NCBI GenBank assembly: GCA_020634015.1
Contig: JACKCN010000001.1
Location: 569,727-633,726 of the forward strand
Length of the DNA: 64,000 bases
DNA from: Candidatus Delongbacteria bacterium
GTDB taxonomy: Bacteria > CAIWAD01
Direction: 5' to 3'
The notes under the pieces: generated by a model
What the model saw: the letters and a program-made list of their open reading frames with translations, nothing else
Told to the model about the DNA's origin: nothing
Databases searched by the model: none
Program-made: the position numbers and the translations under genes
In this document: one piece after another, positions 19,330 to 44,024 of the stretch
How positions within the stretch are numbered: position 1 is the stretch's first letter
How the letters are laid out: every line of letters begins with the position of its first letter

Positions 19330-20345
19330 GCCCCATGTCCTGTCATCCCCGTGAAGCGGGTCGCCCAGAATGGGGGCCCCGAGTGGTTACACCGCACACT
19401 CCCCTGCGCGGGGGGCGCTCTCTACCTTTTCTTCGCGAAGAAAAGGTAGGCCAAAAGAAGGCTCAGCAGGCCTTGCGCCGCGCAAACTTGGCCCGCGATG
19501 CGGTCCTTCGGGCCAAGCGCGGCGGCCCACATGAATGCCCGACCGCTCCGTCTCGATGGTTCCGCCACCGGCGTCACCGCTGTGGAAGAGTTTGATCTGA
19601 GGCGAGCCCCAGGTCCTACCCCCCCAAGCATGTCATTCTTGCGCAAGCAGGAACCCCGAGTGGTTGCACCGCAAGCTTTTTGCATTCGGAATCGCTGTGC
19701 GACAGACAGTCTGCGTGTCACGGATGTTGTCGCCGGTCGCCGGCAATGCGCTCCCCTGCGCGGGGGGCACTCTCTACCTTTTCTTCGCGAAGAAAAGGTA
19801 GACCAAAAGAAGGCTCAGCAGGCCCCGCGCCGCGCAAACTTGGCCCGCGATGCGGTCCGGCGAGCAAGCGCGGCGGCCCACGCTCCCTGCCCGACCGTTC
19901 CGCCTCGATGGTTCCGCCACCGGCGTCACCACTGTGGAAGAAGATTGATCTGAGGCGAGCCCCAGGTCCTGTCATCCCCCCCCAAGCATGTCATTCCCGC
20001 GCAAGCGGGAACCCCGAGTGGTTACACCGCAAGCTTTTTCGCATTCGGAATCGCTGTGCGACAGACAGTGTGCGTGTCACGGATGTTGTCGCCGGTCGCC
20101 GGCAATGCGCTCCCCTTGCGCGGGGGGCGCTCTCTACCTTTTCTTCGCGAAGAAAAGGTAGACCAAAAGAAGGCTCAGCAGACCCCGCGCCGCGCAAACT
20201 TGGCCCGCTTCGCGGTCCGGCGAGCAAGCGCGGCGGCCCACGTGAATGCCTGACCGTTCCGTCTCGATGGTTCCGCCACCGGCGTCACCACTGCGGAAGA
20301 AAATTGATCTGAGGGATTTTGTCATTCCCGCGCAAGCGGGCGTGG
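19330..20345. repeat. Tandem array of three and a half ~355-bp units. Each unit has a perfect 28-bp palindrome and a CRISPR-repeat-like hairpin.
   Basis: Unit periods are 352 and 360 bp, anchored on CCCCTGCGCGGGGGG at 19401, 19753 and 20113. The palindrome CTACCTTTTCTTCGCGAAGAAAAGGTAG is perfect at 19422-19449, 19774-19801 and 20134-20161. The hairpin GTCATTCCCGCGCAAGCGGGAACCCCGAG occurs at about 19342, 19632, 19990 and 20321. Confidence 0.85.
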
Positions 20346-33199: not shown

Positions 33200-33200
33200 A

Positions 33201-33271
33201 CTGGGCTGCAGGGATTCGAACCCCGATAGCTGGAACCAGAATCCAGAGTCCTACCATTGGACGACAGCCCA
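33201..33271 (-). tRNA. tRNA-Gln, anticodon CUG.
   Basis: Reverse complement: TGGGCTG TC GTCC AATGGTA GGAC T CTGGA TTCTGGT TCCAG CTAT CGGGG TTCGAAT CCCTG CAGCCCA G. Seven-bp acceptor stem with U1-A72 as in bacterial tRNA-Gln. Anticodon loop TT-CTG-GT. TTCGAAT T-loop. Confidence 0.85.
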
Positions 33272-33353
33272 ATCGATCTCACAGCAAGCCGCCAAATATA
33301 GGGGCGAATGCTGAAATGTCAAGGGCCTCAAGGTCTCGGCGCGGTGAAGTCGC

Positions 33354-33831: not shown

Positions 33832-35328
33832 TTGTTGTCCATGACTCACGACCGCTCCATCAGCCTGCGACCGTTGTTTCTGGTACTTCTGCTGGCCCTG
33901 GGCCTGCGGTTGGCCTTCTTCCAGGGATTTGCCTTTTCCGACGATGCCCACTACGCCTGGTTGGCCGCCCATCCCGGTGCCCAGTTCGGGGTGGACTACC
34001 CGGGCTATCCGGTCATGCCCCTGCGCGTGGGTCACCTGTTCCTTCTGGGACTGAGCCAGCACTGGTTCGGTCCCGGTGACTGGGGTCTGGCCTTCTTCCC
34101 GCTGATGTTCTCGCTGGCCATGATCGCCATTGCCTGGCGCCTGGGATGCCTGCTCGGCGGACACGGACACGTGGGCAATGCAGCGGCCCTGCTGCTGGCC
34201 CTGCTGCCGGTGGACATCGCCCTGAGCACGCTGGCCTTCGCCGATCTTTCCGCAGCCGCCATGCTGGGCCTGGGAGTCTGGTTGCTGCTGGAGGCTCGTC
34301 ACACGGCCCGGCACTGGCTGCGGGTACCGGGCGCACTGGTACTGGGACTCTCGCTGCTCTGGAAGGAAACCGTGCTCTGGCTGGTGCCGGTGATTCTGGC
34401 GATCCAGTTCGGCATCTGGTTGCGTGATTTCCGCCGCGGCACTCCCCTGCGACCGGATGCAACTCTGCTGGCCGCCGGACTGGGCATTCTGCTGGTGCTG
34501 GGCCTGGAGTCCCTGGTATACGCACTCCTTCACGGCGACCCGCTCTGGCGCTTTCACCAGATGGAACTGAACACGCGGCTCTGCCCCGACGACTTCTTCA
34601 AACTGGGCAGCGCCAAGGGGTACGCCACACCCGAGGAACGACCCGCCGCACTGGCACGCCTGCTGTTGTGGAGCAAGCCCAAGGCCCTGTTCCTGCGCCG
34701 CAATACGCTGTTCATTCTGGCTCTGGCTCTGGTGCAGCTACTGCGCAGACTTCGCCGACATGATCCGGGGCCGCAGGGACTGTGGTTCGGTGGATTGCTG
34801 CTGATGTTCCTCTTCGGCAGCACATCTCTGCAGCGCTACCAGCCACTGCCGCTGGACCTGCCATGGTACATCTACCCACTCTTCCTGCCGGCCGCCCTGC
34901 TGGCCGGTGAACTGCTGGCGGAACTGAGCTGGCGCCGGTTTCGCTGGCTGCTGGCACCCTTGCTGGCGCTCAGCCTCTGGATGTGTCTGGATTTCCGGAA
35001 CTACTTCGACCACTCCGGATTGCAGGAAGTGCGCGCTGCGCTGTCGGCGTCGCCCACAACTCCCGTGTACGGAGATCCCTTCAGCCTGCTCTCGCTGGAT
35101 CATCTGGATGGCCAGCCTTCCGTCAGCCGCGGCATTCCACTGGGCGACAGCGGTCCTGCCGGTCTGGATCTCCCCCCGCCAGGCGCTCTCCTCCTGCTGA
35201 ACCCCGGCAATCTGCACGAGCTGCGTGCCCAGGGGCATGACCCGGTTTCAGTGCCTGCTGGGTCCAATCCGGATTGGACTTTGCTCAGCTCTGGCGGGGG
35301 CTTCCTGCTGTTCCAGCGACTGCACTGA
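33832..35328 (+). CDS. GT39/GT83-like (PMT/ArnT family) membrane glycosyltransferase.
   Basis: 498 aa with about 11 TM helices. The N-terminal loop DDAHYAW resembles the DE/DD motif of PMT-type transferases. Confidence 0.7.
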   Translation: MLSMTHDRSISLRPLFLVLLLALGLRLAFFQGFAFSDDAHYAWLAAHPGAQFGVDYPGYPVMPLRVGHLFLLGLSQHWFGPGDWGLAFFPLMFSLAMIAIAWRLGCLLGGHGHVGNAAALLLALLPVDIALSTLAFADLSAAAMLGLGVWLLLEARHTARHWLRVPGALVLGLSLLWKETVLWLVPVILAIQFGIWLRDFRRGTPLRPDATLLAAGLGILLVLGLESLVYALLHGDPLWRFHQMELNTRLCPDDFFKLGSAKGYATPEERPAALARLLLWSKPKALFLRRNTLFILALALVQLLRRLRRHDPGPQGLWFGGLLLMFLFGSTSLQRYQPLPLDLPWYIYPLFLPAALLAGELLAELSWRRFRWLLAPLLALSLWMCLDFRNYFDHSGLQEVRAALSASPTTPVYGDPFSLLSLDHLDGQPSVSRGIPLGDSGPAGLDLPPPGALLLLNPGNLHELRAQGHDPVSVPAGSNPDWTLLSSGGGFLLFQRLH

Positions 35329-35339
35329 CTTCTTCATCC

Positions 35340-36245
35340 ATGGATGCTGGCCTTGCGGCAGGCATGACGCCAGCGGAGGGCTGGCAGGCATGACGCCAGC
35401 GGAGGGTGCTGGCCTTGCAGCAGGCGTGACGCCAGCCGTGGATGCTGGCCTTGCAGCAGGCGTGACGCCAGCCGTGGATGCTGGCCTTGCAGCAGGCGTG
35501 ACGCCAGCCGTGGATGCTGGCCTTGCAGCAGGCGTGACGCCAGCCGTGGATGCTGGCCTTGCAGCAGGCGTGACGCCAGCGGAGGATGCTGGCCTTGCAG
35601 CAGGCATGACGCCAGCGGAGGGTGCTGGCCTTGCAGCAGGCATGACGCCAGCGGAGGGTGCTGGCCTTGCAGCAGGCGTGACGCCAGCGGAGGATGCTGG
35701 CCTTGCAGCAGGCGTGACGCCAGCGGAGGGTGCTGGCCTTGCAGCAGGCATGACGCCAGCGGAAGGGGCTGGCATGGCAGCAGGTGTTATGCCAGCGGAG
35801 GGTGCTGGCCTGGCAGCAGGCTTGACGCCAGCCGTGGATGTTGGCCTTGCAGCAGGCATGAAACCAGCCGTGGATGTTGGCCTTGCAGCAGGCGTGGAGA
35901 CAGCGGTGGGTGCTGGCCTTGCAGCAGGCGTGACGCCAGTGGAGGGTGCGGGCGTGGCAGCAGGCATGACGCCAGCGGAGGGTGCTGGCCTTGCAGCTGG
36001 CATGACGCCAGCGGAGGGTGCTGGCCTGGCAGCAGGCGTGACGCCAGCCGTGGATGCTGGCCTTGCAGCAGGCATGACGCCAGCGGAGGATGCTGGCCTT
36101 GCAGCAGGCATGACGCCAGCGGAGGGTGCTGGCCTTGAAGCAGGCGTGACGCCAGCCGTGGATACTGGCCTTGCAGCAGGCATGAAGCCAGCGGAGGATG
36201 CTGGCCTGGCAGCAGGCGTGACGCCAGCGGCGAAGTTGGCCTGGT
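35340..36245. repeat. 36-bp tandem repeat array of about 25 copies. It is open in frame on both strands, giving AGVTPAVDAGLA on + and TPAARPASTAGV on -.
   Basis: Consensus unit is GCAGGCGTGACGCCAGCCGTGGATGCTGGCCTTGCA. Copies differ at a few positions (GTG/ATG, GCC/GCG, GTG/GAG, GAT/GGT). Track ORFs 35225-36253 (+) and 35248-36183 (-) are both products of this array. Neither has a signal peptide. Both show GC3 near 50%. Confidence 0.8.
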
Positions 36246-39200
36246 TTACTTGAGCAGGATCATCTTGGCCGTCTGACTGAAGCCATTGGACCCAGGAAGG
36301 TCCTGGTCAACCGTCATGCGATACAGATAGACACCGCTTGCAGCCGAAGCAGCATCCCAGGAAAAGCCATGGCTGCCCGCGCTCAGCACCTGGTCTGCCA
36401 GGCTGGCCACTTCCTGCCCACGCAGATTGTATACTTTGAGGGAGACCGCTGCGGACCGGGGAAGCTGAATATCAATGCGGGTCCGAGGATTGAAGGGATT
36501 GGGATAGTTCTGTCCCAACTCGAAGCGGGCTGGCAACTCGGATTCTTCCCGCACATCCGTGGAAGAAGACCTGACATCGATCCAGTTCAGGTTGAACTGC
36601 CCGACATGAAGTCCCACATGCATGATCTGCTCACCGGCAGCCAGAAAGACATCCGGGATCTGCAGTTCCTGCCAGAACTGCCAGCCACCCGTCACCGGAA
36701 CGGGCACCAGCCCCGTCAGGTCCACACCGTTGACCTCAATGTGCAGACTGCCTCCACCAGGGACGGAAGAAACGGATGGCACCAGGGCATACATGCCCGC
36801 TTCCGCCACCTCGATCGTGTACTCCAGCCACTCCCCATCCTCAATCCAGCCGATGTCGTAGCCCCCGCCTTGATCATTGGATGCCTCGATGTCAACACCT
36901 TCGGTGCTGCGGAAAGGCACTCCGAGGTTCATCGCATCCACGTCGTGATAGGCCACCCCCTCGCCGCCTTCATCGTAGAACTCTGCCTGGATCAGTCCGG
37001 GAATCTGGAATGGAGTTCCCAGGTAGGGCGTCCCATTCTCAAGCACAGTGATCGAGACACTGTCTGAAGACGAGATGTTGAGATTGTTGGTAACGGCAAG
37101 GGAAACGGTATACGTTCCTGTTTCGGTGAAGACATGCTCGACATCAGGCGCTTGTGATGTGTCTCCGTCCCCAAAATCCCACGCATGGCTGAGCGGGGAA
37201 TCATTGGGATCAAAACTGTTGCTTCCGGTGAACAAGACACTCAATGGAGCCTTCCCGGATGTTCTGCTCGGCAACAACAAGGCCACCGGGGAATCCGGAT
37301 CCACGGGTGAGGTGCTGAAAGCCGCCGTCTGGTGTGGGCCCACCAGCAGGGAGAAGCCGTCCGAGAACGTCACCATCCGCTCCTGGGATCCGGCATTGAA
37401 AGCGACGTAGGTCAGATGGCCCGCGGGATCCCTGAAAACGGAGTACGTCGGAATATCTGCAGCAATGGCGGTTTCCACCTGCCCCATCTTTTTCAGATTG
37501 TACAACCAGTGGTATGTATGCGCACGGGACTCGCCATCGAAGGGTTCATACTCGATGTCTGCGTGATACAGCGTCACTGCCAGATCCGGATCTGACAGTG
37601 CCAGGTACTCCCAGAGGATATCCTGCCAGACAGTCGGTTCCCCGTTCCGTTCGGAAACAACTTCGGCGTAGTTGTCCAAGACATAGGCTGGATTCCTTCC
37701 CAGATACAGGGAGCCGCTTGTGACAGGAAGCATGTTGATTCCGTGGATGAACTCGGGTTCAGCGCCGAACCAGGTGGAATGCACGCCCTTTCCGCCCCAG
37801 ACCATGCCGATCGCCGTGTGCGGATAATCCTGGGGAAACACCTCGTTGTCCACATCGAACCAGTAGTGGTCCACGGCGGATGCCTCGTTGGCATGCAGGA
37901 AGATGCCCAGGTCACGGATCTCCGGCTGATTGGTGATCTCCCCCCAGAGGACGACCGCAGAAGCGAAGTTCATCGATTCTGAACTGGATTCCTGATTGTT
38001 GCCCTCCGCAAAGTCGCCATGGCCGGCCGCCCAGGAATGCCCGGCATAGGCATCAAAGGTTCTCAGAAATGGGAACTCTGTATCACTGCGATCCCAGTTG
38101 TCACAATCCTTGATCAGCAGATTCACCATTCCTCCCCACTGACTCGGGGAGGCCCAGGCACTGTCGAACTGCGCAATGGTCGCGGCGCTCATGATGGCGT
38201 AACTGGCATGAAAGTGATGATCATTGATCTGGTCGTCCGCCCCGAATCCGGAGGGATACCCTGTGAGCACATCCCAATTCTCGTCATAGGAGTACTCCTG
38301 CGAGCCGCCCACCGTGAACAAATCCTCCAACCGGACTTTGACCTCATCCAGAAAGTGGTCACGCTCAGCCGTGGCACCAAGCTGGTCGGCGATCTGAGCC
38401 AGATGCGCGAAGCGCGCCATCGCCTTTCCGTTTTCGTAAGTCGGTTCGATGGACAGAGTTTCGCCCGCCACGTCCTGCACATGGTTCAGAAGCACCGTGC
38501 GGTTGTAGTTTCCTTGATCGGGCAGGGCGGGCAGTATTCCGGAAAACTGCAGTTCGGTCGTGAAGGAATTGCCCTCGAGCAATTTCATGGTCCCACGCGG
38601 AGAGTGATAGGTATGGTTCAGCAGCGGGCTGTCCGTATTGAGCCATTGATGCCGATACAGCGCGGTCAAGGTCTGATTCACATTGGTCGCGAAACTGTCT
38701 CTCAGTACGGTCTCATAGGTATAGGTATTCGTGAGCCGCGAGGACGACTCGTCGTACTGCCACTCGATGCGGCTGTCCGTCACGAAAGCGTAGGCGTGGC
38801 TGCGAAACAGCTCAAGCGTCGCCGGACTCGTGTCGGGAAGCAGCGCAACGGAGAGATAATCCTTGCCGTCCAGAGTCGACTGGAAGGTGCTGGTTCCGGA
38901 CCATGTCGAGCCTGTCGGCGCGAAAACACCGTAGTGCTTGCCGCTGATCGTGATCCCCAGTACTTCATTCTGATTGTACCAGATCACGGGAGTCTGTGCG
39001 CTTGCAACAACCGCATTGCCGCCGGTGATTCTGAAGAACGCCCAGGGAAGTCCGTGTCCCAGAGTGGCTTCCATGGATATCGGCCCATCTTCCCACAGAG
39101 CCGTGACTGTCCAATCCCCATAGTGATGGGTCAGTGTCTGGACAGCTGACAATCCGGCAACGCCAATGGTCAGCTGGGCAGCATATGGATACAGAAAATC

Positions 39201-39554
39201 ATCGGCTGCGTAGAGATGATCGGTTGTGTATCCGATTTCCAGACCACTTGAGACGGCCTTGAAATTCAAGGGGTGTGCGTACAGAATGTTGGAGTACGAA
39301 GAGCCGAAGAAGGGGTAAATCAGGCTGCTCCAGAAATCGTTGGTTTGAACAGGCTGGTCAAATGCTGCGGATACTTTCGGAGTCGCATCCGCGCCATTGA
39401 AATTCCGTGGCCCCACTCCACCGGGTGGCAAGGACGTGCTGTAACTTCCAAGGCCAACCGGAACGGATTGTCCGGCAGCGCTCGCAGAATACAGGCAGAT
39501 CAGGAACAAGGATCCAATACTCTGTTTGACTGATTTCAACGCATTCACATTCAT
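36246..39554 (-). CDS. Secreted GH81 endo-beta-1,3-glucanase with PKD and CBM6-like domains and a T9SS CTD.
   Basis: Signal peptide MNVNALKSVKQSIGSLFLICLYSASAAG. GH81 signatures (INDHHFHASY, NNQESSSESMNFASA). PKD domain (SHAWDFGDGDTSQAPDVEHVFTETGTYTVSLAVTN). CBM6-like beta-sandwich. C-terminal NYPNPFNPRTRIDIQL...GVYLYRM. Confidence 0.85.
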   Translation of the reverse strand: MNVNALKSVKQSIGSLFLICLYSASAAGQSVPVGLGSYSTSLPPGGVGPRNFNGADATPKVSAAFDQPVQTNDFWSSLIYPFFGSSYSNILYAHPLNFKAVSSGLEIGYTTDHLYAADDFLYPYAAQLTIGVAGLSAVQTLTHHYGDWTVTALWEDGPISMEATLGHGLPWAFFRITGGNAVVASAQTPVIWYNQNEVLGITISGKHYGVFAPTGSTWSGTSTFQSTLDGKDYLSVALLPDTSPATLELFRSHAYAFVTDSRIEWQYDESSSRLTNTYTYETVLRDSFATNVNQTLTALYRHQWLNTDSPLLNHTYHSPRGTMKLLEGNSFTTELQFSGILPALPDQGNYNRTVLLNHVQDVAGETLSIEPTYENGKAMARFAHLAQIADQLGATAERDHFLDEVKVRLEDLFTVGGSQEYSYDENWDVLTGYPSGFGADDQINDHHFHASYAIMSAATIAQFDSAWASPSQWGGMVNLLIKDCDNWDRSDTEFPFLRTFDAYAGHSWAAGHGDFAEGNNQESSSESMNFASAVVLWGEITNQPEIRDLGIFLHANEASAVDHYWFDVDNEVFPQDYPHTAIGMVWGGKGVHSTWFGAEPEFIHGINMLPVTSGSLYLGRNPAYVLDNYAEVVSERNGEPTVWQDILWEYLALSDPDLAVTLYHADIEYEPFDGESRAHTYHWLYNLKKMGQVETAIAADIPTYSVFRDPAGHLTYVAFNAGSQERMVTFSDGFSLLVGPHQTAAFSTSPVDPDSPVALLLPSRTSGKAPLSVLFTGSNSFDPNDSPLSHAWDFGDGDTSQAPDVEHVFTETGTYTVSLAVTNNLNISSSDSVSITVLENGTPYLGTPFQIPGLIQAEFYDEGGEGVAYHDVDAMNLGVPFRSTEGVDIEASNDQGGGYDIGWIEDGEWLEYTIEVAEAGMYALVPSVSSVPGGGSLHIEVNGVDLTGLVPVPVTGGWQFWQELQIPDVFLAAGEQIMHVGLHVGQFNLNWIDVRSSSTDVREESELPARFELGQNYPNPFNPRTRIDIQLPRSAAVSLKVYNLRGQEVASLADQVLSAGSHGFSWDAASAASGVYLYRMTVDQDLPGSNGFSQTAKMILLK

Positions 39555-39833
39555 CTGAGCAGTTCCATTGATGGTGCGGACATCATTGCTGGGCACGGGT
39601 CTGCGATTCTTGTTGCGATATGCCCACAACATCCTTGGTTGAGTCGCGACCGCCCAGTCTAGCAGTTTCGGTTGACCTGCCTCGAAACATTGAAGATACA
39701 GGCGGCGACGCGAGTGGATCACATCACTTAAATCAGACCACAGGCTGGTCCATCCGGCAAGCCTGCTTCATGGAATGGAAAGCCCCGCCTGCAGGATTGC
39801 AGACGGGGCTTTGCTCGAACTGAGACCAGCTTC

Positions 39834-42800
39834 CTACTTGATCAGCATCATCTTGCCGACCGAATCGAAGAGGCTGCGCCCGTCGGCGGACGCCACGTGG
39901 ATCCGGTAGAAGTAGACACCGCTCGAGAGGCTGCTGCCGTCAAAGATCACATCGTGGGTGCCGGCGGGGCGCATGCCGCTCACCAGACTCTGCATGTGCT
40001 GACCCAGCATGTTGTAGACATCCAGGCTCACCAGTCCCTGCTCGGGAAGGGCATAGCGGATCACGGTGCTGGGGTTGAAGGGGTTGGGATAGTTGCTTTC
40101 GAGGGCCCAGGCCGTCGGCAGACGCAGGGCGTCACGCTGGACATCCGTGGTCTGGCAGGGAGCCGTGTACTCTTCCACCGGGTGCGCGAGGCCATTGGTC
40201 CAGCCCACGAACAGGCGTCCATCATCACTCAGTGCCAGACCATGAGCTTCGCTGAGTCCGCTGGGGCAGAAATCGCCACGCGCATCCACGCTGCCGTCTC
40301 CCAGATCAAGGAAGCACTCCAGATACCCGGTGCCCACGTGCAGGGCCACCAGCTGATCGGAGCCTTCGTTGTAATCCAGACCGGCCGCGCCGCTGCCACC
40401 GGCTTCCGACCAGGGAACGGGAATCACGTCCAGTCCAATCGGGTTGGCCGCGTCGGACACGTCAAGGCGCACGAATTCATCAATCGCACCATTGCTGCAG
40501 ATGGCCCAGAGGACCTCGCCATCCTCGTCGAAGGCCAGGCCCGTGGGCATGCGACCGGTCGCCACATCGAGAAGGGCCGGGGTGTGGGCGCCGATCAGCG
40601 CACCGCTGGCGCTCACATGTGAGACGCCACCACTCCAGGAAACCCAGAAACTGCCATCGCGGGAATCATGGGCAATGCCCGAGTAGTCGTGTCCGATGGG
40701 CAGAACGAAAATGCTGCCGACCACGCCGGTATCGCTGTCTTCCATCACCATTCTGTTCACTCCGCTGGCCAGCCAGACCAGAGTGTTGGCATCGATCCAG
40801 TCACCGTCGCTGAGATGATCCATGCCGAACAGGCCGTTGCCATTCACGTTCTGGATCAGCTGGGCCGTGTGGCTGCAGCTTGCGGCGGTCAGGATCTCGA
40901 CCGTATCGAAGGCCGTGTCGTCTTCGGTGGACTCAACCGTCAGCAGCACCAGATCCGTGAAGCTGGCCGGCACTTCCGGCACATGCACGCGCACACCCAG
41001 GTCAAAGAGATCCTCGTACTGCATCACGGGCAGGGCGGTGATCTCGGCCCAGTCGGCATTGATGTCGTGGAAGGTCACATCCCAGGCATTGCCTTCGCTG
41101 ACAAGTGAGAAGGCGCTGGCATTGTCACCGCGGTTCTCGACTTCCAGTTCGTATTCGGCGTAGCCACCGGTCAGGCCAACGCCCTGAAGATTGTCGGGGC
41201 GCACGCGCACGGCGTAGGGGCCCGAGGGACCGATCACATTGAAACCGAACCAGATCGCGCTCTGGTCGTGCGGCAACCAGCCCTGACCGTCGAAACTGGC
41301 GCTGAAGCCCTGTCCACCGCTGGCGTCTTCCTGGCCAATCGTGCAACTGAGGATGTCCAGTGGCGCCAACAGGGTGTCGTAGTTGATCCGGACGGCTTCC
41401 TCGTTGCTGTCGAGAATCACCTGGGCCGTGATCTGTCCGGTGCCTCCGTACTCGAAGACCTGATCGAAAGTCACGATGAACATGCCGTCCTGGCTGCCGT
41501 AGGTCACTGTGCCGCCCGTGGCAGGGTTCAGGTCATCCCAGAAGAAGGACACGACACCATTGGGCGTGGCGGCATTGGGCAGTTGCTGGTTGGCCAGCGA
41601 GGTCAATCCGGTGGGATCGAAGGCGATCGAGCCATTGGAGGCGATGTAGACCTCGGTGTACTCCACACCATAGTGCGTCCAGGGGAAGCCGATCTCGAAG
41701 GGGCCGACGAAACTGTCGTCCGTCAGCGTGACGGGGTTTGGATTCTCGATCGTGACCCAGTCGTACTCCACCGCCCCATCGGCATCGCTGGTGGACCAGA
41801 AATAGCCCCCGGCATCGGGTCCGCCCTGGACCAGCACGATGGTCAGCAGCACCACGGTTTCGTCGCTGCGGTTGCCATCGCCCTGGCTGGTGGCCGTGAC
41901 GGTGATCGTGGCATTGGGCTGAGCCGGATTCTCGGGAATGGTCAGCTCAAGTTCGATTTCCTGGGAGTCGCCGACGGCGACGCTCGGGGTCACGTTGCTC
42001 AGCTCGCCATTGATCAGGATATCCACTTCCACGCCGTTGTCGGCCGTGGCCTGAATCACGAAGGAATCGGGCAGCAGCCCCTGGTTGAACACGTCCAGGA
42101 AGGCACTCACCTGGCTGTCGGCAGGTCCGGTGGCGGTCACGCCGTCCTCGAGGGCCACGAAGTAGTTCGGCGGTGGCGAAAGCTCGAAGCGCAGGGTCAA
42201 GTCGTCGGAGGGGAGCCAGGGCTCGCCATCCAGTACGACCTGGATCCCATCCTCGCCCGTGTAATCCTCGATACCGATGGTGCAGGAGGTCACGTCCAGT
42301 GGCGCCACCAGCGCATCGTAATTCAGGAAGATCTGGTCATTGTCGAAATCGAAGACCACCTGGGCCCGCACGGTGCCCGTGCCCCCGTACTCCACCACGG
42401 CATCGTAGGTGATCACGAAACGGCCATCACCATCGGTGCCGTAGTACACCGAACCACCCGAACCCGGGTTGAGGTCATCCCAGAACAGTGCGATGATCCC
42501 GTTGGGAACACCCGCCGTGGGAATGGCCGTGTTGCTGAGACTGGTCATGCCCGCAGCATCGAATCCGATCATGCCATTGCTGCCGACGTAGATCTGGGTC
42601 TGGGGCGTGCCATAGAAACCGATCGTGCCGTTCATGTCGAAGGGGCCGGCCACACTGTCGTCCGTGAGTGTCACGGGAGTGCGGTCCTGCGGATCCAGCT
42701 CCACGAAGAAGTATGGTGTTCCGTTGGGGTCGGCCGAGCTGTACCACGTGTTGCCGAAGCTGTCGGACCCATTGGTGGTCACCACCAACACGGTGGATTG

Positions 42801-44024
42801 CATGCTCTCCGAGATCTGGTCGTCGCCCTGGGAGGTGGCGGTCACCGTGATCGCCTCACTCTGGCCGCCCATGTTTCCGCCCACCGTGACAGCCAGGCGG
42901 AATGTGGTCAGCTCCAGGGAGTTCACCGGTCCCACGGAACTGATCGGATTGCCTTCCATGTCCTGCAGCTGATAGTCGAAGAGATCGTCACCCGAGAAGG
43001 ACAGGTCGTAACTGTCGGTGATCAGGCCGGCATTGCCCACCGTGAAGGTGGCGGTCACCGTGTTGTCCGAGGCGGCCTGGATCTGGGCCGGTCCGCTCAG
43101 GTCCAGCGCGAACTGGGGCGGCGGGGCCAGATCGAAGCGCACGCTGGTCTGGGCAGTCGGCAGGAAGGGCGCCGAGTTGTAGATCACCTGAAGCCCGTCG
43201 GTGCCCGTGGGATCCTCGATGCCGATGGTGCAGGAGCTCAGGTCGATGCCCCCATCGAATGAGTCGTAATTGCAGTAGATGGCCGAGTTGTCGAAGTCCA
43301 GCACCACCTGTGCCACGAGGGTACCATCGCCCGCCAGACGGCTGATGCCATCGTAGGTCAACACGAAGTCATTGCCGACCATGCCATAGTAGATCTGCCC
43401 GCCGTCCGGGGGATACAGATCGTCCCAGAACAGGGCCACCAGATTGTCGGGAGTGGTGGCTGCGGGCAAGGTCTGGTTGGTGTAGGTGTTCATTGCGGTG
43501 CCGGAGAAACCCAGGATGCCGTTGGCACCGATCCAGGCCTGGGTATAGGACACACCGTAGTAACTGATCACGCCACCCAGATCCACGGGACCGGCCACGC
43601 CATCGTCGGTCAGCGTCAGGTAGTTGCGGTCGGCTTCGTCAATGGTCAGCCAGGTGTAGTCGGGGCCGCCCTCATCCCCGGTCATGATCCAGCTGTTGCC
43701 GAATGCGTCGGGGCCCCCCTCGTCCGTCTGCTGGCCCGGCCCCTTGTGAATGATGGGGGTTTCCGCGTCCAACAGCCCTTTCTCGCCCAGTGTCAGCGAC
43801 TCGCCCATCCGGAATCGGTAGTGCAGAAGACTTTCGCCGGGCAGATGACCGGCCTGGCCCTGGCGCTTGGCCAGTTCTTCCGCGGAAAGCTGCACGCCGG
43901 AATCGGCGGCCGAAGCCTTGAGCTCCAGTTCCTTGTCCATGGATGTCCTGGTCGTGGCGGACCATGCCGGGGACAGCATCAAGGTCCCCAGGAGCGCGAC
44001 GGCGCTCGTTCTTCCAATTCGCAT
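39834..44024 (-). CDS. Giant secreted T9SS cargo protein (1396 aa). Four copies of an unrecognised ~290-aa module, then a propeller-like region and CTD.
   Basis: Signal peptide MRIGRTSAVALLGTLMLSPAWSA. Modules are marked by GGPDAFGN(S/T)W, LTDD(S/G)xAGP(F/V)D(M/L)G, YYG(V/T)xYT(Q/E)xYIG(S/A)NG, ALFWDDL(N/Y)P, SSCTIGIED and RF(D/E)L(A/S)PPP. C-terminal NYPNPFNPSTVIRY...GVYFYRIHV. Confidence 0.85.
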   Translation of the reverse strand: MRIGRTSAVALLGTLMLSPAWSATTRTSMDKELELKASAADSGVQLSAEELAKRQGQAGHLPGESLLHYRFRMGESLTLGEKGLLDAETPIIHKGPGQQTDEGGPDAFGNSWIMTGDEGGPDYTWLTIDEADRNYLTLTDDGVAGPVDLGGVISYYGVSYTQAWIGANGILGFSGTAMNTYTNQTLPAATTPDNLVALFWDDLYPPDGGQIYYGMVGNDFVLTYDGISRLAGDGTLVAQVVLDFDNSAIYCNYDSFDGGIDLSSCTIGIEDPTGTDGLQVIYNSAPFLPTAQTSVRFDLAPPPQFALDLSGPAQIQAASDNTVTATFTVGNAGLITDSYDLSFSGDDLFDYQLQDMEGNPISSVGPVNSLELTTFRLAVTVGGNMGGQSEAITVTATSQGDDQISESMQSTVLVVTTNGSDSFGNTWYSSADPNGTPYFFVELDPQDRTPVTLTDDSVAGPFDMNGTIGFYGTPQTQIYVGSNGMIGFDAAGMTSLSNTAIPTAGVPNGIIALFWDDLNPGSGGSVYYGTDGDGRFVITYDAVVEYGGTGTVRAQVVFDFDNDQIFLNYDALVAPLDVTSCTIGIEDYTGEDGIQVVLDGEPWLPSDDLTLRFELSPPPNYFVALEDGVTATGPADSQVSAFLDVFNQGLLPDSFVIQATADNGVEVDILINGELSNVTPSVAVGDSQEIELELTIPENPAQPNATITVTATSQGDGNRSDETVVLLTIVLVQGGPDAGGYFWSTSDADGAVEYDWVTIENPNPVTLTDDSFVGPFEIGFPWTHYGVEYTEVYIASNGSIAFDPTGLTSLANQQLPNAATPNGVVSFFWDDLNPATGGTVTYGSQDGMFIVTFDQVFEYGGTGQITAQVILDSNEEAVRINYDTLLAPLDILSCTIGQEDASGGQGFSASFDGQGWLPHDQSAIWFGFNVIGPSGPYAVRVRPDNLQGVGLTGGYAEYELEVENRGDNASAFSLVSEGNAWDVTFHDINADWAEITALPVMQYEDLFDLGVRVHVPEVPASFTDLVLLTVESTEDDTAFDTVEILTAASCSHTAQLIQNVNGNGLFGMDHLSDGDWIDANTLVWLASGVNRMVMEDSDTGVVGSIFVLPIGHDYSGIAHDSRDGSFWVSWSGGVSHVSASGALIGAHTPALLDVATGRMPTGLAFDEDGEVLWAICSNGAIDEFVRLDVSDAANPIGLDVIPVPWSEAGGSGAAGLDYNEGSDQLVALHVGTGYLECFLDLGDGSVDARGDFCPSGLSEAHGLALSDDGRLFVGWTNGLAHPVEEYTAPCQTTDVQRDALRLPTAWALESNYPNPFNPSTVIRYALPEQGLVSLDVYNMLGQHMQSLVSGMRPAGTHDVIFDGSSLSSGVYFYRIHVASADGRSLFDSVGKMMLIK

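Follow-up and report, generated by a model that had tools for sequence, protein, structure and literature searches.

Introduction

MIRUs are minisatellites that lie mostly in intergenic regions and are thought to be co-transcribed with their neighbouring genes (PMC3635867). Other classes of repeated DNA that invite comparison with the locus described here include the coding contingency loci represented by the surface-protein VNTRs of pathogens, CRISPR arrays, REP/BIME elements and the variable repeats of diversity-generating retroelements. MIRUs also reportedly carry short open reading frames (ORFs) abutting the flanking genes, as Supply and co-workers are said to have described in 1997 and 2000.

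We describe an array of 36-bp tandem repeats in an uncultured bacterium, found in a stretch of 64,000 nucleotides of contig JACKCN010000001.1 (assembly GCA_020634015.1), which will be referred to as "the window". The array is probably a non-coding, hypervariable minisatellite (VNTR) belonging to a small repeat family of a single species, with at least two intergenic loci. Several properties of the array point in other directions, and the readings that they would support are weighed below together with the evidence on which they depend.

Genomic setting and architecture of the array

The array takes up all of the space separating two convergent genes, a glycosyltransferase (GT39) on the left and a glucanase (GH81) on the right. 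The elements of the locus are the following:

33841-35328, + strand: membrane glycosyltransferase, 495 aa, of GT39/PMT_2-like type (Pfam PMT_2 match at E=1e-4, under the gathering score)
35338-35357, + strand: left boundary with a partial first unit (about columns 17-36 of the unit), read from the sequence, in register from 35340 and with similarity back to ~35338
35358-35383, + strand: truncated 26-nt unit, with a net 10-bp deletion (in-register print)
35384-36211, + strand: 23 full 36-bp units, consensus GCAGGCGTGACGCCAGCGGAGGATGCTGGCCTTGCA (in-register print)
36212-36245, + strand: degenerate terminal unit, with similarity to about 36244 (in-register print)
36246-39722, − strand: GH81 glucanase with PKD, CBM6 and a T9SS C-terminal sorting domain (Pfam Glyco_hydro81C, 1e-57; CBM_6; PKD; Por_Secre_tail)

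The stop codon of GT39 lies 11 nt ahead of the first array base, and at the other end the degenerate unit abuts the stop codon of GH81 with no spacer. GT39 is identical to NCBI entry MCB9472666.1 ("glycosyltransferase family 39 protein"), and GH81 matches MCB9472668.1, encoded on the same MAG contig; the true start of GH81 is likely M57, at 39554. No promoter-like or terminator-like sites were found in 34800-36800. A tRNA-Gln(CTG) gene is situated at 33200-33272 on the − strand, ~570 bp upstream of GT39, and no sign of an integrated element was seen there.

A tandem array of about 25 copies with a 36-bp period had been reported from the letters of the window (hereafter, the sequence-only reading), and it was confirmed by Tandem Repeats Finder (23.5 copies with 89% matches at 35384-36230) and by printing the units in register; in total there are ~25 units at ~35338-36244, a copy number that comes from the window's assembly alone. 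The unit as originally quoted has 11 matches at ≤3 mismatches, vs 0 in 100 shuffles, and none elsewhere in the window. Units 2-5 are identical, the greatest divergence is found in units 11-16, and within each 36-bp unit there is a pair of inverted hexamers, GCCAGC...GCTGGC. The partial first unit contains an ATG at 35340, for which no SD-like motif was seen (about 7/12 of the neighbouring genes have one), and a 12-nt palindrome, CATCCATGGATG (35337-35348), and the indel that had been placed at about 35380 corresponds to the 26-nt unit with its net 10-bp deletion. Regarding composition, the + frame of the array does have a GC3 of about 50% (0.52) and a high GC1 (0.86), as first described, whereas the GC3 of around 85% attributed to the flanking genes was an overestimate, the values being 0.77 for GT39, 0.67 for GH81 and 0.76-0.84 for the others.

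Two candidate origins of the unit were discarded, namely the 3' end of GH81 (a vague resemblance, by eye only) and the triplication of a 12-mer (3-7/12 matches by eye). An unrelated tandem repeat is present elsewhere in the window, at 19399-20314, with a period of 352 bp, 2.6 copies and 92% matches; each of its copies carries the perfect palindrome CTACCTTTTCTTCGCGAAGAAAAGGTAG.

Variation of the array among strains

Assemblies of other samples contain contigs of this species with flanks 99.2-99.8% identical to the window (99.3% for contig L079 and 99.8% for L080); L081, L085 and L086, described below, end inside the repeat. Taking four such assemblies together, with flanks about 99% identical, the array junctions are the same and the end units are different. 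The left junction is common to the window, L081 and L084; L081 (ENA ERZ27309329) spans it and continues 4 units into the array, the junction being identical to that of the window, the order of the units unlike it, and a full unit standing where the window has the 26-nt one, which thus leaves the boundary ATG in frame. The right junction is spanned by L085 (also from ERZ27309329) and L086 (GCA_020431785.1), with one A/G difference there. Compared with the window position by position, the array part is 84% identical in L085 and 91% in L086, and the adjacent 1500 nt of GH81 are 98.6% and 99.0% identical, respectively; the array therefore turns over far faster than its surroundings. In this sense, the variability foreseen in the sequence-only reading holds for the ends of the array, hypervariable in sequence and order between strains whose flanks are 98.6-99.6% identical.

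The same contigs bear on the reading of the array, or of its length and 26-nt unit, as an assembly artefact. Copy number and the 10-bp deletion are known from one assembly, and short-read assemblies break at the repeat or mis-join through it (L079, L081, L084), both of which speak for an artefact. Nonetheless, short-read contigs from other samples enter the array from both sides (L081, L085, L086), so it is not the artefact of one assembly; the assemblies of other samples share its junctions and show 4-6 units at both ends and at a second locus, and the units display a structured mosaic of variants instead of noise. We therefore regard an artefact as extremely improbable.

The array had also been described as possibly very young, and this agrees with its absence downstream of GT39 in relatives at 63-68% amino-acid identity: in L082 (68%) and L083 (63%) the sequence downstream of GT39 is unrelated and contains no array, which points to an evolutionarily young one. 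Among the GH81 orthologues at 78 loci of a species-level genome collection, the best (73-75% identity, in Calditrichia MAGs) are not syntenic and no related array accompanies them. One Calditrichia MAG, OZ245730.1, has, just upstream of its GH81 orthologue, an unrelated tandem repeat, AT-rich and made up of 6.6 copies of 42 bp (L001 9169-9447).

Other differences among strains were observed around GH81. In contig k141_48970 of ERZ27309329 (L085 186-1478; window ~38712), what appears to be an IS insertion splits GH81 at residue 435; the inserted gene, of 430 aa, has a DUF4277 transposase domain. Next to GH81 in the window, homology between the gene of a 1396-aa T9SS protein (39834-44024, − strand) and GCA_020431785.1 ends at window position ~41542; the latter assembly (L086 1-8010) encodes Peptidase_S8 proteins instead, making this a strain-variable T9SS cargo region. 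Genomes that are ~99% identical carry the NCBI labels Candidatus Delongbacteria, Calditrichota and Candidatus Cloacimonadota, so the labelling is inconsistent.

A second locus of the same repeat family

The array had been treated as a single locus, and this did not stand: a second array of the same 36-bp unit family (locus B) lies upstream of an NTP_transferase gene, with flanks unrelated to those of the GT39-GH81 locus (locus A). In the window's own MAG, the NTP_transferase gene (MCB9475014.1) is on a separate, 63.8-kb contig. Four other contigs carry this gene, each beginning a short way upstream of it, and in three of them (L088-L090) the upstream stretch contains an array of the family, the fourth (L091) having only 54 nt upstream. 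L088 covers locus B completely, with 6 units and both flanks, while L089 and L090 begin inside the array. Read along L088, the end of an unrelated gene is followed by a terminator-like hairpin (z = -2.1) with a U-run, the 6 units, a degenerate unit, a promoter-like site and the NTP_transferase gene; locus B hence sits between co-directional genes. Its array also differs among strains, with 6 units in L088 vs at least 6.8 in L089 and a different unit order. The presence of a second array at an unrelated locus fits a repeat family at the DNA level better than it fits a gene.

A further contig, L084 (GCA_020439845.1, JAGQRX010000046.1; L084/L087 7444-7520), contains GT39, then 1.7 units and then the NTP-transferase gene. 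An "empty" ancestral site was considered for it and ruled out, since the flank on its right side belongs to locus B. Judged from its sequence, L084 is the left flank of locus A joined to the right flank of locus B via the shared repeat, the join being due either to chimeric assembly or to genuine ectopic recombination.

Searching the window and all 91 loci with a two-unit profile (nhmmer) revealed neither solitary nor diverged units beyond the two arrays, and the 36-bp unit had 0 matches in JGI metagenome contigs (two exact patterns) and in IMG/VR. The repeat family comprises at least two loci, two being those that could be reached.

Reading frames and coding potential

Both frames quoted in the sequence-only reading, +AGVTPAVDAGLA and −TPAARPASTAGV, were found open. 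The corresponding ORFs, delimited mechanically and judged incidental, are:

35225-36253, + strand: ORF of 342 aa from a GTG, with the repeat AG[VM]xPA[EVA][GD]AGLA
35248-36183, − strand: ORF of 311 aa with an ATG start, with the repeat TPAARPA[SP][ST]AGx

A third frame (−, WRHACCKASIHG) is also free of stops in the array and two more have one stop each; with hardly any stops in five of the six frames, an open frame says little in this sequence. Gene callers do place a CDS in the array. Prodigal called a CDS on the + strand of contig L085, and from the accession gap between MCB9472666 and MCB9472668, PGAP appears to have called one CDS (MCB9472667.1) inside it; the two array ORFs were looked up with 11 alternative starts to recover this presumed CDS, and none of these versions was in the collection. 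The array as a read-through extension of GT39 or GH81 was also rejected, as stops follow soon and the T9SS domain has to stay at the C-terminus.

The + ORF could in principle be a real gene for a disordered, acidic, Ala/Gly/Pro-rich protein consisting of nothing but repeats with a hypervariable fourth residue, in which gain or loss of units and non-3n indels such as the 10-bp deletion would alter the length or switch the start, in the style of a contingency locus. Consistent with this, the + frame is open in every fragment of both loci, the left-boundary ATG, 11 nt past the GT39 stop, shares its frame with the entire array in L081 and L084, and the called CDS on L085 is on this strand. In the window, the 26-nt unit puts ATG 35340 out of the array frame, leaving a 17-codon ORF that ends in TGA, and at the same time places a GGAGG 10 nt upstream of another ATG, at 35390 (GGAGG-N10-ATG). 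G starts 9/12 + codons of the unit, a GNN periodicity typical of sequences coding for Ala, Gly, Val, Asp and Glu, and the variable + "codon", NNG, retains its third base. Based on the codon usage of the window, the codon log-likelihood of the + frame is slightly positive (+0.08) and intermediate, genes having a mean of +0.25 and wrong frames of -0.32.

Other observations speak against a + strand gene. The Ala, Leu and Pro codons on which the frame relies are rare ones (RSCU 0.44-0.66), and its GC3 of 0.52 compares with 0.67-0.84 in the neighbouring genes. A signal peptide is missing, as is any Pfam match above threshold for an array frame, and the ORFs begin and end differently at the two loci, so that neither terminus is conserved. 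At locus B a TAG precedes the opening of the + frame, whose first ATG comes no earlier than the fourth unit, and the frame lies in the space between the terminator-like hairpin and the promoter-like site of the next gene. Variant alleles are also spread evenly over the codon positions: among 48 pooled units (33 distinct; both loci, all strains), distinct alleles at + codon positions 1, 2 and 3 number 9:12:10. By hand count there are ~10 synonymous vs ~21 non-synonymous distinct changes, near the neutral expectation of ~1/3, a count of low power, and selection tests are in any case weak on a young array homogenised by conversion. A word-indexed search of 5.8 billion clusters returned no homologues of the + frame, and when 1.84 billion representatives were searched exhaustively with phmmer, the sole matches were unrelated low-complexity proteins with 12-residue repeats of Ala/Gly/Pro type, several of them evidently eukaryotic. 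Taken together, these data make a + strand gene rather unlikely.

The − ORF, read as a real gene, would encode a basic Pro/Ala-rich repeat protein, (TPAARPA[SP][ST]AGx)n. In its favour are its 311 aa with an ATG start and the coincidence of its third positions with those of the + frame; since they coincide, the codon-position result holds for both frames alike and the pattern of variation cannot tell one from the other. However, its codon log-likelihood (-0.47) resembles that of wrong frames, and the codons AGG, CCT, GCA and GCT on which it draws all have RSCU values of 0.38-0.55. The searches gave two weak low-complexity matches and no true homologue; furthermore, the ORF would overlap the 3' end of GT39 antisense by 80 nt, and at locus B the frame begins and ends in unrelated flank sequence. 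We find a gene on this strand very improbable.

The sequence-only reading had offered two alternatives, a coding repeat or a non-coding minisatellite. The second is the one favoured by the results, positive evidence of coding having been found on neither strand, and coding is unlikely even with both strands counted together. A wider version, in which the arrays would be expressed + strand genes for disordered, repeat-only Ala/Gly/Pro-rich proteins whose fourth residue is kept hypervariable (columns 10-11 of the unit, beside a fixed third base) and whose expression or length is toggled by unit indels, as a mucin-like contingency system, seems quite improbable to us. Such a system may be linked to glycan metabolism, as both loci lie beside sugar-handling genes (the PMT-like GT39 and GH81 in one case, a sugar-nucleotide NTP-transferase in the other).

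Hypervariable columns and possible functions in cis

Variation is unevenly distributed along the unit. Columns 10-11 (e.g., window 35393-35394, and every 36 bp after) show 10/16 dinucleotides among the 33 distinct units; column 12 beside them is nearly invariant, and columns 8 and 14-16 vary hardly or not at all. The variability of columns 10-11 could reflect a mutational hotspot, a spacer under relaxed constraint or diversifying selection acting on a single residue.

The most variable columns (7, 10, 11, 18, 20, 23 and 33) are all outside the inverted hexamers, which, together with the presence of such hexamers in every unit, would suit a functional cis element, either a series of sites for a DNA-binding protein or a structured 3' region serving to terminate or insulate the convergent transcripts. 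The array itself is moreover the sole candidate terminator region between the two convergent genes. Against this, the probability that five hot columns miss the 12 stem columns by chance is about 0.11 by our own calculation, which is not significant, and the stem variants are uncompensated, with 3 mismatches and 2 wobbles among 5. Four units fold no better than shuffled sequences on either strand (z = +0.64 and -0.43), and the whole array is likewise without excess stability; no inverted repeat of ≥10 nt was found, and Rfam, searched at gathering and permissive thresholds, gave nothing relevant. The context is also different at locus B, where the genes are co-directional. A cis function of this kind is thus decidedly unlikely in our judgement.

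Discussion

The explanation that we favour is that of a non-coding minisatellite. Four identical units in a row and the mosaic of recombinant unit types are interpreted as traces of replication slippage, unequal recombination and gene conversion between units, through which the array would grow, shrink and shuffle its variants. The likeness of the two loci would be kept by recent duplication or by ectopic conversion, and the long ORFs on both strands would be by-products of a unit length of 3n and a stop-poor sequence. Given that there is no other terminator-like site between GT39 and GH81, the array is probably transcribed as a 3' tail of the mRNAs of one or both genes. Some features fit less well. 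The extreme variability of columns 10-11 beside a near-invariant column 12 is not predicted by a purely neutral model, and the 3n unit, the GNN periodicity, the boundary ATG in two strains, the GGAGG-N10-ATG of the window and the CDS found by a gene caller all count against a non-coding array.

From the practical point of view, the array is a ready strain-typing marker for an uncultured lineage whose NCBI labels are inconsistent. It also explains why short-read MAGs of the species break at this point and why JAGQRX010000046.1 joins two unrelated loci, and it marks the call of a hypothetical protein inside it as probably spurious. The hypervariable dinucleotide, in a unit otherwise homogenised, is a small unexplained feature. 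We consider the biological interest of the locus modest; it would grow if the + frame proved to be expressed and the coding reading true: should peptides such as AGLAAGVTPAEDAGLA, expected from the + frame, be real products, the array would be coding.

Comparison with known systems

With 36 bp, the unit has the typical length of a CRISPR repeat, but a CRISPR array was rejected, as the units are contiguous, without spacers, and no cas domains were found in the neighbouring genes examined. REP/BIME elements share with the array an intergenic position, multiple copies and short inverted hexamers; both these elements and a structured RNA were set aside in view of the absence of a stem-loop more stable than in shuffled sequences, the long head-to-tail arrays and the lack of solitary units. 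A diversity-generating retroelement was discarded as well: the variable columns include C11, C31 and T33, A15 and A36 never vary, and no RT domain was found among the scanned neighbours of the array.

Coding contingency loci, such as the surface-protein VNTRs of pathogens, resemble the array in the 3n unit, the open frames, the mosaic of variants and the strain-specific non-3n indel at the 5' end. In contrast to them, the array has no signal peptide, anchor or non-repeat domain and no purifying or codon-periodic signal, and its repeat recurs at another locus, where head and tail are different.

The closest likeness is that to MIRU-VNTRs, which are direct tandem repeats of tens of base pairs at dispersed, mostly intergenic loci, polymorphic among strains; the ATG 11 nt past the GT39 stop recalls the ORFs with which MIRUs are said to abut their flanking genes. 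The likeness proposed is one of kind, with no claim of a sequence relationship or of family descent. The unit is also shorter here (36 bp vs about 46-101 bp), the loci are two so far vs about 41, one of the arrays is long (~25 units), and it stands between convergent genes of an uncultured FCB-group bacterium instead of inside an operon. By analogy, given its direct repeats, its more than one dispersed locus and its intergenic position, the array is to be classed as a multi-locus minisatellite (VNTR) of MIRU-like type, and such minisatellites would thereby be extended to a poorly known bacterial group.
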